The notes under the pieces were generated by a model that had not been told where the DNA came from, made no database searches, and worked only from the letters and a program-made list of their open reading frames with translations. A stretch of 60,683 nt of DNA from Deltaproteobacteria bacterium (GTDB taxonomy: Bacteria > Myxococcota > UBA727 > VGSZ01). Position 1 is the stretch's first letter. Every line of letters starts with the position of its first letter. Positions 49,889 to 59,622 of the stretch are shown here, one piece after another. The stretch covers positions 1 to 60,683 of the forward strand of contig JADZDP010000155.1 in NCBI GenBank assembly GCA_020850995.1. Reading direction: 5' to 3'. A program made the translations under genes and the position numbers.

Positions 49889-49965
49889 GCGCCCGTAGCT
49901 CAGCTGGATAGAGCGTCGGTCTCCGAAGCCGAAGGTCGTGCGTTCGAATCGCACCGGGCGCGCCA
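49889..49965 (+). tRNA. tRNA-Arg (anticodon CCG)
   Basis: Cloverleaf: acceptor GCGCCCG/CGGGCGC; D-arm GCTC-AGCTGGATA-GAGC; anticodon stem TCGGT/GCCGA with loop CTCCGAA; T-arm GTGCG-TTCGAAT-CGCAC. Discriminator G. 3' CCA encoded. Confidence 0.85.
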
Positions 49966-51495
49966 ATCGTTGCCCTTCGTCATTTCCGCGAGGATGGCGA
50001 AGGGCTTTTTCATTTCCCAACGGACCGTTACGCCGTCGAGGCGCGGGTTCGAAAGCACCATCTCGAGCAGTTGGCGCTTCTCCGCGGGGCTGCGCTGGTT
50101 CCACAACGATCTCGCGCGCTTGGCGAGTTCGAAAATGCGGTCGGCGGTGGCGAGGTACTTGTCGTCGAGCTCCTCGCTCGCGGCGCTCAGGCGCTCGGCG
50201 GCCTGGTGGCGCTCGGTCATGAACAGGTCGCGCTGGCGGGCGTAGGTGACGTCGTCGAGCTTGCCGTCGATGTAGAGCGACACCAGCTTGTCGTCCCGCG
50301 CCTGGACCTCCTCCAGCGTGCGCCTCAGGGCGGCGATCTCGCGGCGGCGCTCGCTGCGCGTGACCTCGTGCGTCTCCCGCAACACGCGTGAGATCTCGGC
50401 CGCGAGCGCCTCGGGCATCTCGATGTTGGCGATGGCCGTCTCGAACTGGCCGAGGAGCTGCGCCTCGGTGATGTGGACGCGCTTGGCGTGGGCCCGGTGG
50501 CCGTTGGCGCAGCGGTAGTAGTCGTAGCGCTTGCCGCTCTGCTTCACCTTCGGGTCGTAGGTGATCCGGCAGCCGCACTGTGCGCAGGCGAGGAAGCCCG
50601 AGAGCGCTCCCGCGGCGGCGAGCGGCGAGCCGTAGTGGCCGCGCGTGAACGTGGCCTGGAGGCGGTCCCACTCGTCGGCGGTGAAGATCGGCTCGTGTTT
50701 GCCACGGTAGCGCTCGTCTCGCCAGGTGAACCAGCCGGCGTAGAACTCGTGCTTGAGGATGGCCTCGACGTCACCGGCGCGGAGCACGCGGTTCTTGCGG
50801 CCGAGAGCGGCCCAGAGGCCCTCGGCGACGACGGCCGCGCCGATGGCCTCCAACGAGTGCCCAGCGAGACGCAGCTCGCACATGCGGCGCAACAGGGAGC
50901 GGCCGGCGGGCAGGAGCTCGATGGTGCCGCCGCGGTCCTTCACCACGCCGCTTGGCCCGACGAGCTTGGCGTTCCGGTACCCGGTCGGGGGCCGCGTCGG
51001 GTACCAACCGTCCTTCGCCTTGGCGTCCTGCGACTCCTTGGCGCGCCGCGAGAGCTGCCGGGAGTAGGTCTTCGCCACCAGCGTGTTCATCTCGGCCTTG
51101 AGCCAGTCGCCCTCGTCTGAGCCCGCGTGCAGCGCCCAGCGCTCGTGCGCGACGTGCAGCACGACCTGGTCCTTGCGGATCAGATCCTCGAGCAGCTCGT
51201 AGTCGGTGAAGTTGCGCGTGGTGCGGTCCCAGACCCAGAAGATCAGGTGGCGGACCTTCTCCTTCTTGGCGCGGGCGAGCGCGGCGTGGAACTTCACGCG
51301 CGCGTCGGAGGACTTCGCGCTCTCCTCGATCTGCACGATGTCCACCAGGTGCAGGCCGATGGCCTTCGCGTGCGCGGCGATCCCGTCGCGCTGTACGCCG
51401 GGGCTGTTGTTGTCGCCCTGCTTCTTGGACGACACGCGCACAACGCCGATCGCCTTGGCCGACTTGCCGAGCCACCGGGAAGTCTTCACGTCCAT
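49900..51495 (-). mobile_element. large serine recombinase (integrase) abutting and overlapping tRNA-Arg
   Basis: Resolvase catalytic domain IGVVRVSSKKQ. Recombinase domain. Zinc ribbon CAQCGC...YYRCANGH. C-terminal coiled coil. The ORF 3' end runs antisense through the tRNA. Confidence 0.85.
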
Positions 51496-52155
51496 GGTGC
51501 ACCTCGCTGGGCTGATCAGATCACGACGGCGCGCGGGCGTCATCGCCGGCTGCGCGCTGGTCGGTCTCGCGGGCCCACGCGTCGAGCAGCGCGAAGGCGT
51601 CGGCGATGACCCGCACTTCCCCGCGAGTAATGCGGACGCCGGCGTCGCGGTTCTCGGGCCAAAACAGGAGCAGGTTGCCGCTCGGTGTCTCATCCAGCAG
51701 CATGGCGGACCTCCGTCGGGAACAGGTCGCGGACCGCGCGCCGCCGCCTCATGACGCGCGACACGTCGCGCCGTTTCGCGTTCTTGGTGTCGCCGTCGCC
51801 GTCGCCCGCTGGGGCGGCGACGCGACGGCGGGGCCGTCGCCCGAGCCTGAGCCCCACCCGGATGCCGCCGAAGAACAGGTTGGTGCGGTCTACCTATGGG
51901 TCTGGTTGTGGCCAGCGACCTCCGCCGCTCCCGCGGCAGCGATGGAGAGAGTGCCGTTGCGCTCCTCGACATCACGTGCCGGCCCGTCGCCGTCAGGCGA
52001 CACGCAAAGCGTGCCGGCTGGGGAGTGGCCTTCTTGGCCATGACCCAGGAGGTCGCTGGCTCCATGTCACTATGATGTCAACGCAGGTATTTCGGGCGCT
52101 TGGATGTGCTCGGGATGTCAGATGTGTTTACCCGTCATGGTGACATCCAACGGCG

Positions 52156-52169
52156 GGACACATGTGTCC
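52156..52169. promoter_or_regulatory. 14-bp perfect palindrome GGACACATGTGTCC in low-GC leader upstream of the RHS operon
   Basis: Lies within a ~110-bp low-GC stretch (52070-52180) that also has GATGTCA / TGACATC inverted repeats. Confidence 0.4.
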
Positions 52170-52268
52170 GGAAACGACCGACCCTGCGGGCTGGTGAGAC
52201 TCCGCGCGACGTTGCGTTCCGCGCGGGCGGTCGGATAGGCTCGGCCCCACTTCACGACCGGGGGGTCG

Positions 52269-52931
52269 ATGGAATCGAGTCTCGCTGCGACCAATGGCGC
52301 GCGCAAGTCCGTGCTCCGTTGGGCGGCACTGGCGATCGCCTTGGCTCTCCTCGTCGCGGCCGTCGCCCTGTTGGTCCGACGCGACGAGGTCGAGCGAGCT
52401 GAGGCTTTTGCCCCGCGCCGGGACGATGAGGCCGGCAGCGCGGGAACGCCGCACTTTGCTGGCGGAAGGGAAGTTGCGCCCGCTGTGAACGACCCCGGCG
52501 GAAAAGCCGAGGCAGTGCGAACCCTCTTCCCGGAACGCGCGCTTGTCGACGGCATCATCCGGACAGGCGCCGGCTCCGCCGGCGTGCTCGAGTCAGCGAA
52601 TCGCAGGGTGTTGCTGGTGCCGGGCGAGCACATCGAGATCCGCCTTCGCCCTTCAACATCGGGCGCTGCTGTGACCGTGCGTGCCGACGATGGCGGCGTC
52701 ATCAACGGGCTTCAGCTGCAGCCCCAGGTCGAGCTGCCCGCGGCGACGACCAGCTTCGCCTTCGCCGCTGGCGGCCATCGTGGGCTCTACACCGTCACGA
52801 TTACTCGCGGTGACGAGCTGCAAATTCTGGAAGCGTGGGTCGGCAACGAGGCGCCAACCGGGCGCGCCGGACCACCACGCCAGATCGAGCTACCTCGGAA
52901 CATCGTCGCTGACACCTCGGAGCATCCATGA
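52269..52931 (+). CDS. membrane-anchored hypothetical protein, translationally coupled to the RHS gene
   Basis: N-terminal TM helix LRWAALAIALALLVAAVALLV. ATGA overlap with the RHS start. Confidence 0.45.
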   Translation: MESSLAATNGARKSVLRWAALAIALALLVAAVALLVRRDEVERAEAFAPRRDDEAGSAGTPHFAGGREVAPAVNDPGGKAEAVRTLFPERALVDGIIRTGAGSAGVLESANRRVLLVPGEHIEIRLRPSTSGAAVTVRADDGGVINGLQLQPQVELPAATTSFAFAAGGHRGLYTVTITRGDELQILEAWVGNEAPTGRAGPPRQIELPRNIVADTSEHP

Positions 52932-59099: not shown

Positions 59100-59461
59100 A
59101 GATCAAGCTCGACGAGAATCTCGGGCGGCGCGGGCTGGTGGCCTTCCGTGCGGCCGGTCACGACGTCGACACCGTTGTCGACGAGGGCCTGGCGAGCGCG
59201 ACGGACGACGAGGTGCGCGCCGCGGCTACGGGCGAGCGACGCGTGCTTGTGACGCTCGATCTCGACCTCGCGAATCCGCTCCGGCACCCGCCCGCGCATA
59301 CCGCTGGGATCGCGGTGCTCCGACTCCCCGAGCCGCTGACGCCAGCCGCACTGGCGGCCGCCGTCGCAGTGCTGATCACCGAGCTGACGCGGGAGGACAT
59401 CGCCGGGAGGCTGTGGATCGTCGAGCTCGACCGGATCCGCGTCTACGAACCGTCGACGTGA
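59096..59461 (+). CDS. DUF5615 family PIN-like toxin
   Basis: MKIKLDENLG... ATGA overlap with the DUF433 stop. Canonical DUF433/DUF5615 pairing. Confidence 0.7.
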   Translation: MKIKLDENLGRRGLVAFRAAGHDVDTVVDEGLASATDDEVRAAATGERRVLVTLDLDLANPLRHPPAHTAGIAVLRLPEPLTPAALAAAVAVLITELTREDIAGRLWIVELDRIRVYEPST

Positions 59462-59463
59462 CC

Positions 59464-59505
59464 GAGTGCGGTTCGAAACTCCTCAAGCCGGGCGCGCAGT
59501 TCTGT
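59464..59505. repeat. partial copy of the tRNA-3'-end-like element (candidate attR)
   Basis: GTGCGGTTCGAAACTCCTCAAGCCGGGCGCGCAG shares GTGCG-TTCGAA and CCGGGCGCGC blocks with the tRNA-Arg T-arm/acceptor 3' half. Confidence 0.35.
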
Positions 59506-59506
59506 T

Positions 59507-59529
59507 GGAGGGTCTGATGCAGACCCTCC
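59507..59529 (+). terminator. GC-rich hairpin downstream of the TA operon
   Basis: GGAGGGTCTG-ATG-CAGACCCTCC, a 10-bp perfect stem. No T tract. Confidence 0.35.
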
Positions 59530-59622
59530 CCCGCGCGGGCACAGCCCGACGCGGGGCCCCCACCCAACCCCCGTGGCTGCGGCTCCTGCCTCGCTCCGCT
59601 CGGCCTCGTTCAGGGGCGCAGC

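Follow-up and report, generated by a model that had tools for sequence, protein, structure and literature searches.

How does an island with toxin genes come to lie against the 3′ end of a tRNA gene when the recombinase gene beside that tRNA encodes a large serine recombinase (LSR)? For the insertion of large DNA, serine integrases are the tools of choice, and their targets are commonly pictured as odd sites within protein-coding genes, tRNA genes being regarded as the territory of tyrosine integrases. The question is raised by contig JADZDP010000155.1 of a metagenome-assembled, Myxococcota-like genome (labelled 'Deltaproteobacteria bacterium'), which was analyzed as one entire contig of 60,683 bp (the window; right edge of the contig at 60683) and in which an LSR gene, an RHS toxin gene and a toxin-antitoxin (TA) module follow a tRNA-Arg(CCG) gene at position 49889. 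The whole is very probably a composite, additive island at the 3′ end of this tRNA, built by an LSR family whose natural attachment site attB is the 3′ end of a tRNA gene. The initial annotation had proposed an island of about 9.6 kb integrated at tRNA-Arg(CCG) by an LSR. Integration by such an enzyme is borne out by its domains, by the overlap of the two genes and by the geometry of the attachment (att) sites, but the extent probably has to be redrawn, as the element proper most likely ends at 58757, after 8.8 kb, with the TA module as a separate cassette.

The recombinase gene and its tRNA

The tRNA-Arg(CCG) gene, the sole tRNA that ARAGORN finds in the window, occupies 49889-49965 on the plus strand and is intact (Rfam score 68 bits). 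Its part from T-loop to CCA, 49942-49965, is taken as the B half-site of attB. On the minus strand, the LSR open reading frame (ORF; 49900-52065) contains the domains Resolvase (PF00239, E=1.3e-15), Recombinase (PF07508, 7.3e-10) and Zn_ribbon_recom (PF13408, 1.2e-07), matches the integrases of PHROG 95 (3e-62), and aligns through residues 247-493 with the structure of the A118 integrase C-terminal domain (4KIS). The start was put at 51495, giving a gene of 531 amino acids (aa) at 49900-51495, because homologues measure 513-527 aa. Compared with 29 family members the ORF is intact and keeps every family-invariant residue; these include R20 and S22 within the VRVSS motif of a resolvase-type catalytic domain with its catalytic serine, and the cysteines C304, C307, C309 and C329, which form a four-Cys zinc ribbon next to the recombinase domain.

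The 3′ end of the LSR gene reaches 66 nt into the tRNA on the opposite strand. The stop codon, 49900-49902, falls inside the tRNA and the last 21 codons are therefore antisense tRNA, in agreement with what had been read from this junction at the outset. The TGG codon of Trp511 is the complement of the tRNA CCA end (49963-49965), the codons after it are the complement of the acceptor 3′ strand, and all 20 residues past W511 are encoded antisense to tRNA-Arg(CCG). W511 is invariant among family sequences that are 35-90% identical.

This overlap is a general trait of the family. With a profile from the 29 members, 80 loci were recovered in species-representative genomes, and at 63 of these the LSR gene overlaps an antisense tRNA at its 3′ end (related loci are given below by L numbers and homologous proteins by P numbers). 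Ten amino-acid identities are represented (Glu 22, Arg 9, Gln 8, Ser 7, Leu 6, Asp 5, Asn 2, Pro 2, Val 1, His 1), in several phyla; the hosts, as labelled, include Myxococcota, Bdellovibrionota, Oligoflexia, Zixibacteria, Patescibacteria, Margulisbacteria, Vampirovibrionales and Pseudomonadales. The integration module of the window, 49889-52080, recurs at 78-84% identity at tRNA-Arg(ACG), (CCT) and (CCG) and at tRNA fragments elsewhere, each time with unrelated cargo. A phage origin was considered and is not supported, a single distant family relative being found in viral contigs. The genome that holds L016 also has an LSR gene that is apparently truncated or interrupted (L019 1-1272 and 3318-3510; the match covers residues 30-453), with a second LSR 3′ piece and a tRNA fragment about 2 kb further on.

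The downstream repeats as attP half-sites

Four related repeats of about 29 nt lie on the far side of the cargo, at 58729, 59468, 59623 and 60497. A repeat finder groups them as family D4, with copies of about 40 nt at 58726-58765, 59465-59504, 59620-59659 and 60494-60533. An ungapped position weight matrix (PWM), derived from homologous arms in related loci, gives the four sites scores of 25-46 bits on a single strand: arm 1 (58729-58757, 25.4 bits), arm 2 (59468-59497, 45.8 bits), the degenerate arm 3 (59623-59651, 27.9 bits) and arm 4 (60497-60525, 41.1 bits), all on the minus strand. No further match occurs elsewhere in the 60.7 kb window, and among 20 window shuffles one gave one match and 19 gave none; for an exact-pattern search, 0 chance matches are expected. 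Since the PWM matches are confined to the four local sites, the repeats are not a dispersed genome repeat. Beside the copy near 59465, the further copies first reported at about 58731 and 59623 are real by both D4 and the PWM, and the one at 60497 had been missed.

The identity of the repeats emerges from the C-terminus of the recombinase. Read on the LSR strand, arm 2 gives CGC GCC CGG CTT GAG GAG TTT CGA ACC GCA CTC, that is RARLEEFRTAL, followed by GHVDGS and a stop, so that the minus strand encodes RARLEEFRTALGHVDGS up to a stop codon. The frame matches that of the LSR at the tRNA, ...NDW-RAR-CDSNARPSAS..., and the two versions of the LSR tail would be ..WRARLEEFRTALGHVDGS in the native gene and ..WRARCDSNARPSASETDALSS in the integrated one. 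Among 59 homologues the tail pattern W-R-x-R-[DE]-S-N, which is the T-loop read antisense (GATTCGAAC), is present in at least 30 by the strict pattern and in about 40 by eye. P0024 and P0039 differ: their tails, WRARVEDFWTGCRSAA and WRTRAEEFRTAIASAA (W-R-x-R-x-E-[ED]-F), resemble the window repeats, and their genes sit on contigs without any tRNA. Arm 2 would give the window LSR a tail of native length, 17 aa before the stop against 15 aa in these two. The P0024 contig is a circular molecule of 6.2 kb, as its 141-nt terminal overlap equals the assembler k-mer, and it carries an intact P|P′ junction, an attP. In the attP of P0039 the P arm, GCAGTTCTAAATTCTTCTGCCCGGGTGCGC, has the same sequence as the distal arms of the integrated loci L040 and L062. 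Because the window repeats match both the LSR C-terminus of unintegrated relatives and the distal arms of integrated ones, we read them as the P half-site of attP: the 3′ end that the recombinase gene would have in its free state, left at the far end of the element after integration.

The two unintegrated recombinase genes (L001 3209-3256; L002 2111-2158) have alanine-rich ends, ...RSAA and ...ASAA. It is pure speculation that such ends, which resemble protease degradation tags, might be real tags that integration removes; the arm 2 tail of the window ends differently.

Were the arms instead a family of the repetitive extragenic palindrome (REP) or miniature inverted-repeat transposable element type, or an operator of the TA operon, their likeness to tRNA would be a matter of chance. 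Two copies do lie directly upstream of DUF433 genes, GC-rich repeats are plentiful in high-GC genomes, and an apparent REP-associated tyrosine transposase (RAYT) accompanies REP-like sequences in the L016 array. We regard this origin as very improbable, as the other 58 kb of the window hold no copies, the repeats follow the LSR C-termini of unintegrated relatives in reading frame as well as sequence, and in many genomes such arms stand at the far end of LSR islands, varying with the targeted tRNA and keeping a +5 spacing.

Site geometry and crossover

Spacing and sequence both set the repeats apart from a tRNA fragment. In the tRNA, GTTCGAA at 49942-49948 is separated by 5 nt from CCGGGCGCGC, whereas in arm 2 GTTCGAA (59471-59477) is separated by 10 nt from the same 10-bp core. 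Identity between repeat and tRNA is limited to these 10 bp, and the upstream part of the arm is shifted by 5 bp and differs in sequence. The repeat near 59465 had first been described as resembling the tRNA 3′ half, as expected of a distal att site. It is of att type, but outside the 10 identical bp it is the P half-site of attP, a mimic of T-loop and acceptor with +5 bp spacing. The left junction, attL (49942-49995), consists of the B arm GTTCGAA at 49942-49948, the 5-nt gap, the core CCGGGCGCGC at 49954-49963, and P′ from about 49964 in the 3′ coding end of the LSR gene.

Whether this offset is general was asked of 66 loci in which the LSR abuts a tRNA, by seeking the T-loop 7-mer and the acceptor 8-mer of that tRNA downstream at offsets from -4 to +13. 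Ten loci (one of them, L030, doubtful) show an offset of +5, with tRNA-Arg, Asp and Ser as targets and with all four window arms matched; every other offset is seen in 0-3 loci and the opposite strand likewise gives 0-3. This motif-plus-block test replaced a first statistic, the number of matches over 25 nt, which was too noisy, with many 9-mer seeds occurring by chance. By eye, +5 is also present in L016, L038, L072, L035 and L041, and the pair L026 has +3. The offset matches a published rule for serine integrases, by which the motif recognized by the zinc ribbon lies 5 bp nearer the crossover in attB than in attP (Rutherford et al. 2013, PMC3783163); the shift places the coiled-coil motifs such that synapsis is restricted to attP x attB pairs (PMC3783163), and the 4KIS structure with which the window LSR aligns comes from this paper. 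In the window and in the family test alike the motif is 5 bp closer to the common core on the tRNA side, and on the strength of that match the arms and the tRNA are read as attP/attB geometry, in which the zinc ribbon would read the T-loop motif. By these comparisons the recombinase belongs, as it appears, to a large clade dedicated to tRNA 3′ ends, with attP inside its own gene as a tRNA mimic that has the canonical 5-bp offset.

The crossover would have to fall within CCGGGCGCGC in the window and within identity blocks of 9-16 bp in other loci. A clean case is L004, a single island of 5.8 kb whose P arm abuts the tRNA terminator hairpin and whose attL and attR have the core CCGGGCGCGCCAA in common. 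An inverted P-type arm at 58795-58826 (TGGCCACGCGCC...TTTCGAACTGC), inside the sequence described below as X1, was noticed by eye; its spacing is intermediate and the ungapped PWM does not detect it, and it was set aside.

The same features bear on a classical tRNA island made by a tyrosine integrase, with direct repeats of the tRNA 3′ half and the LSR as a passenger. The 3′ ends of tRNA genes are the usual targets of tyrosine integrases (PMC7192596). Such an origin is barely credible here: the tRNA identity extends over just 10 bp and gives way to a 5-bp offset where a distal direct repeat of the tRNA 3′ end would be looked for, and the gene that abuts the tRNA, as at most family loci, encodes a serine recombinase. 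A scan of the main island ORFs against Pfam, NCBIfam and PHROGs, which was not exhaustive, found no tyrosine integrase.

Several elements adjoin a bare 3′ fragment of a tRNA, about 25 nt from T-loop to CCA with B-type spacing and no tRNA body (L003/L018, L016, L106 and three JGI contigs), which fits a target defined by one half-site and suggests that the B half-site alone may be a sufficient target. Positions of this kind, where related LSR elements are often integrated, were recorded in L097/L100, L098, L099, L106 5040-5075 and L003 11534-11560.

Boundaries of the element and the array beyond it

The orthologous tRNA in relatives, recognized by the same upstream gene at 64-89% identity, shows what is accessory. 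In L011 a recombinase remnant of 50 bp, some 500 bp of AT-rich sequence and a P arm separate it from the core genes; in L009 it is followed by a recombinase remnant and an IS3-type gene; in L012 the site is empty and the tRNA is inverted. As these tRNAs carry remnants, other cargo or none, the window cargo is accessory. In none of the relatives compared do the same genes stand at this tRNA without a recombinase, an arrangement that would have spoken for a different origin.

The closest guide to the distal boundary is L103, in which a 90%-identical recombinase sits in tRNA-Arg(CCT) and is followed, in the order seen in the window, by the small ORF, another short ORF, an RHS gene (1647 aa) and a single gene downstream of it. 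A single P arm comes directly after this RHS-associated gene and agrees with window arm 1 in 26 of 29 positions and with arm 2 in 24 of 29. Because that arm follows the RHS-associated gene and is nearest to arm 1, the element proper most likely ends at 58757, which would make the LSR-RHS element 49966-58757 (8.8 kb) and arm 1, which has the +5 spacing, its likely original attR. Two of the substitutions that separate arm 1 from the L103 arm are CCGGG to CCAGG in the core and TTCGAA to TTAGAA in the T-loop mimic.

The TA module is absent from the L103 element, and the same DUF433/DUF5615 cassette (76% identical) is found in L016 between two P arms, distant from the recombinase element. We therefore regard the module as a separate, adjacent cassette (58758-59497, 0.74 kb) with arm 2 as its own P arm, which is also the best preserved possible partner for attL; arm 2 has the +5 spacing, and the L016 cassette ends in a comparable arm. 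Some evidence points the other way, to one element of 9.5 kb, as first drawn, in which arm 2 would be the cognate attR, the TA module a stabilizing cargo of its own and arm 1 an internal relic. Arm 2 agrees best with the arms that the closest relatives have (45.8 bits by PWM against 25.4 for arm 1), and it keeps the core CCGGGCGCGC intact and a tail of native length. Yet L103 has the same LSR-RHS organization without the TA module and an arm nearer to arm 1, and L016 has the TA cassette with its own arms apart from an LSR element, and a single element seems unlikely to us. Given the substitutions in arm 1, the resident recombinase may now pair attL better with arm 2 than with arm 1 and so move a 9.5-kb composite, an alternative that we think rather unlikely.

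Beyond arm 2 the units continue. A U unit of about 0.15 kb (59498-59651) ends in arm 3, which has P-type spacing, and a cassette with a degraded TA module and a DUF1697 gene (59652-60525, 0.87 kb) ends in arm 4. The serial insertions that were first suggested from the degraded antitoxin and the extra repeats survive testing, and the array runs beyond the island as first delimited, to arm 4 and further. The left end shared by the TA-type cassettes, here called X1, lies at 58758-58835, with a second copy at 59652-59718 and another in L106 (5662-5757). It is 89% identical over 64 nt to 59652-59715, and 81% over the 107 nt of repeat family D3. In L106 a different TA pair, ParDE-like by eye only, stands behind the same X1 left end.

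The U element (59498-59622) is a non-coding stretch of about 125 nt with a hairpin and a conserved sequence of about 100 nt, GCGGCTCCTGCCTCGCTCCGCTCGGCC. Homologues lie beside att arms in at least four genomes and in differing tRNA contexts (L003 11560-11700, in L003/L018; L016 3800-3945; L103 1-120; L007 985-1040), and the first hairpin is maintained by compensatory changes in three genomes. The U element and its arms have no Rfam match (the island and L003 were scanned), and the idea that element and arm form a tRNA or tmRNA-like gene was dropped, as ARAGORN and Rfam find none. In L003 the copy is found on the upstream side of rpsB, and the B-type tRNA fragment at its end has served an LSR element as target.

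The contig L007, from a different sample (SRR25822718), is 99.9% identical to the window but departs from it at exactly 60566, 117 nt before the window contig ends. Past the divergence, L007 (985-1840) has another U-like copy and a DUF6438 gene. Given this divergence and the end of the contig at 60683, the array is variable between strains and probably longer than what is seen here. Arrays of P arms downstream of one tRNA recur in L016 (five), L084 (three), L040 (two) and L085 (three to four), and stacking is for this reason considered a property of the family. L085 is a distant example, a Pseudomonadales genome with a recombinase 23% identical to that of the window at tRNA-Ser(GGA). Its arms, near 6091, 5127, 3032 and 1707, bound units of 1-2 kb, one with a glycosyltransferase gene, and the recombinase sits next to a replication protein with REP_ORF2-G2P and RepSA-type domains (L085 9069-9947).

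Other repeats were recorded in L016. Past its cassette array, at 1600-2050, are at least five tandem repeats of about 104 nt, each with a tRNA-Met 3′ fragment (GGCGGTTCGAATCCTGCCGGGCCCACA); an extra copy of this unit adjoins the real tRNA-Met, and the LSR element is inserted into that copy. At 3150-3760, judged by eye only, is an apparent IS200/RAYT-like transposase gene with an HVHVL motif, flanked by palindromic REP-like GGGGGGCAGGCGTCCCGCCTGTCAC.

The integration module and cargo genes

Directly upstream of the LSR gene and in the same orientation is a conserved 60-aa ORF (51521-51703, minus strand). ORFs 52% identical to it occupy the equivalent position in L003 and L004, and ORFs of 59-60 aa do so in L103 and L106. 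It has no family match in Pfam, NCBIfam or PHROGs and is a candidate regulator or recombination directionality factor, the kind of protein that serine integrases need for excision. The next 380 bp or so (51704-52080), apparently non-coding, are 75-84% identical in L101, L016, L004, L103 and L106, which have no common cargo past 52080; this part of the integration module may be its promoter or regulatory region. A perfect 14-bp palindrome, GGACACATGTGTCC, lies at 52156-52169 in the gap, richer in AT, that separates the integration module from the RHS operon.

The cargo had initially been described as a toxin/immunity cassette followed by a TA module. Pfam and NCBIfam confirm both an RHS toxin and a DUF433/DUF5615 pair, but the immunity gene is a guess from position. 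The RHS gene (52928-57847, plus strand, 1639 aa) has DUF6531, RHS repeats (RHS_repeat, 1.3e-75), LTD, Rhs_assc_core at residues 1413-1497, and a variable C-terminal domain with an HExxH motif. Repeat shell, RHS-associated core and variable C-terminal domain together make it a predicted RHS/YD-repeat polymorphic toxin. Its last 140 aa carry the HExxH and a weak match to Peptidase_M91 (E=0.0045), below the cut-off. Homology with the L103 RHS protein ends at 57382, just ahead of the C-terminal toxin, and the C-terminal domain is not common to both; a break of homology before the C-terminal toxin is expected of polymorphic toxins.

Before the RHS gene lies a 220-aa ORF (52269-52931, plus strand) without a family match in Pfam, NCBIfam or PHROGs. 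The equivalent position in L103 has a called gene of 123 aa, and nucleotide homology to L103 reaches the 3′ part of the ORF. Two ORFs for Cys-rich, lipoprotein-like proteins follow the RHS gene on the same strand. The first, of 128 aa (57837-58223), overlaps the RHS stop, has no family match in the same three collections and is a candidate immunity protein by position alone; the second, of 97 aa (58414-58707), has weak matches to DUF7107 and Dickkopf_N, under the cut-off, and no family assignment from those collections.

The TA cassette consists of two adjacent small genes in one operon on the plus strand: a DUF433 antitoxin-like gene (58788-59099; PF04255, 9e-25), whose ORF opens at 58788 with a likely GTG start at 58854, and a DUF5615 (PIN-like) toxin-like gene (59096-59461; PF18480, 1.1e-18), which overlaps the DUF433 stop by the 4 nt ATGA. 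We take this pair to be a type II toxin-antitoxin module, its toxicity being putative. In the fourth unit the second X1 copy and a degraded DUF433 gene (59652-59875, plus strand; repeat families D3 and D11) precede the DUF1697 gene (59888-60448, plus strand; Pfam 1.8e-35), the cargo of that unit.

A model for integration and stacking

These observations can be assembled into a mechanism. Sequence and comparisons show that attP lies within the last codons of the LSR gene, and integration therefore swaps the native tail WRAR-LEEFRTAL for the antisense-tRNA tail WRAR-CDSNARP, while the P arm at the distal end preserves the coding sequence of the native tail. The 5-bp offset would let the coiled-coil motifs distinguish attP from attB, as in the model for the A118/LI integrases, with strand exchange inside the common CCGGGCGCGC, and P′ would resupply the last bases of the tRNA, which would thereby stay intact. 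Since the B half, from T-loop to CCA, is all that is conserved between targets, an occupied tRNA would presumably still be usable, B′ being replaced by the left end of the resident unit. New elements and recombinase-less cassettes could then stack beside the tRNA: the LSR-RHS element, the TA cassette, the U unit, the degraded-TA/DUF1697 cassette and those beyond.

Several points weigh against this composite, serially built island. Arm 1 has substitutions in both core and T-loop mimic, and the element may have lost the ability to excise by way of it. For the window element neither an excised circle nor an empty site nor an attP was recovered: JGI metagenomes scanned for its predicted attP (arm 2 plus P′) gave 0 matches, and a looser scan found integrated copies only. 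Serine integrases exchange strands at a non-palindromic central dinucleotide that attP and attB have in common, but most core dinucleotides here are palindromic, the L016 junctions fit no single crossover position, and a P/P′ symmetry contradicts those junctions. Some arrays include B-type tRNA fragments and the U element, which are not products of simple serial integration; simple integration by a serine recombinase does not duplicate the B arm. We also know of no serine integrase that targets attL-like sites, so that stacking requires an assumed tolerance.

A rival reading takes the locus for a fossil, its units inserted by LSRs in the past but now fixed, the arms decaying scars and some units products of local duplication. 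In its favor are the degenerate state of arms 1 and 3, the degraded DUF433 copy, the LSR remnants that relatives commonly have at the orthologous tRNA, and the 81% identity of [arm 1 + X1] with [arm 3 + X1] over 107 nt, which a duplication would give. We hold this to be possible, though on balance not probable, because the LSR ORF is intact with all its family-invariant residues, attL and arms 2 and 4 are near consensus, the same integration module is found, 80-84% identical, at three other tRNA-Arg isoacceptors, and a near-identical strain differs just beyond arm 4.

An extension of the composite island that we offer only tentatively, and think rather doubtful, is a platform that collects cassettes: small recombinase-less units (TA modules, single genes) with an X1 left end and a P arm would be captured or exchanged in trans by a resident or visiting LSR, and the C-terminal swap would perhaps act as a switch between free and integrated forms. 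An integron-type platform in the strict sense, with an IntI-type tyrosine integrase, attI and cassettes that end in attC hairpins, was rejected, since an LSR takes the place of the integrase and P-type arms of LSR sites close the cassettes; the analogy is confined to the layout of the array. If the cassette platform were true, it would equal integron-like arrays in outcome, with serine-recombinase chemistry.

Relation to known systems

Integrative islands that carry toxin genes are ordinary objects; the one described here was built by an unusual variant of a known enzyme class. Like the integrases of A118/LI, Bxb1 and phiC31, the window LSR has the domain order resolvase-recombinase-zinc ribbon, an alignment to 4KIS, short att sites and the 5-bp motif shift. 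It differs from them in that the target is the 3′ end of a tRNA gene and not a protein-coding gene, that attP lies inside the last codons of the recombinase so that integration rewrites the C-terminus, that the family is almost absent from viral contigs, and that the identity between attP and attB, at 10-16 bp, is longer than the usual few bases. With the tyrosine-integrase tRNA islands of the Islander/TIGER type it shares insertion at the tRNA 3′ end, an intact tRNA, an integrase gene beside that tRNA and accessory cargo; the recombinase family and its chemistry are different, and no piece of the tRNA 3′ end some tens of bases long is displaced.

The 3′ end of a tRNA-Ser gene is said to be the attB of phiRSM, reportedly in work by Askora et al. 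in 2011. Unlike the window LSR, the phiRSM enzyme is small and resolvase-like, and because it lacks the recombinase and zinc-ribbon domains, the logic of attP/attB discrimination does not apply to it. The likeness lies in the use of a serine recombinase as a site-specific integrase (cited in PMC7192596). In the TIGER survey, 14 of 297 serine-integrase islands were at t(m)RNA genes, and its authors knew of no earlier report (PMC7192596).

The tycheposons of Prochlorococcus, compared by description, are likewise islands that grow beside a tRNA by repeated insertion, with variability highest nearest the tRNA, and 27 of 937 elements of this type carry an LSR in place of a tyrosine recombinase (bioRxiv 10.1101/2020.12.28.424599). 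Their host phylum is a different one, and the window element is without replication genes. In the accretion described for ICESt1/CIME, recombinase-less units bounded by att sites are said to stand in tandem with an element that encodes a recombinase and to be movable with or by it. The window array resembles this in having recombinase-less, att-bounded units in tandem with a recombinase-bearing element, whereas ICESt1/CIME elements rely on tyrosine integrases and on att sites that are true direct repeats; the arms of the window are half-sites of an LSR, and its units may be mobilized in trans. In the open-access literature we found no description of the att anatomy reported here.

Locally, integration by the LSR would account for the arrival of the RHS toxin and the toxin-antitoxin modules in this Myxococcota-like genome. 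More widely, there appears to be a broad LSR clade (at least 63 loci, several phyla) whose attB is the T-loop-to-CCA end of a tRNA, the most conserved short sequence in biology. In this clade attP and attB can be read straight from genomes, and the +5 bp rule is visible in natural sites. The result is a directly testable model of how an LSR may read a tRNA gene, one that would also account for the stacking of islands at these tRNAs, and it points to integrases whose landing sites are already present in almost any genome.

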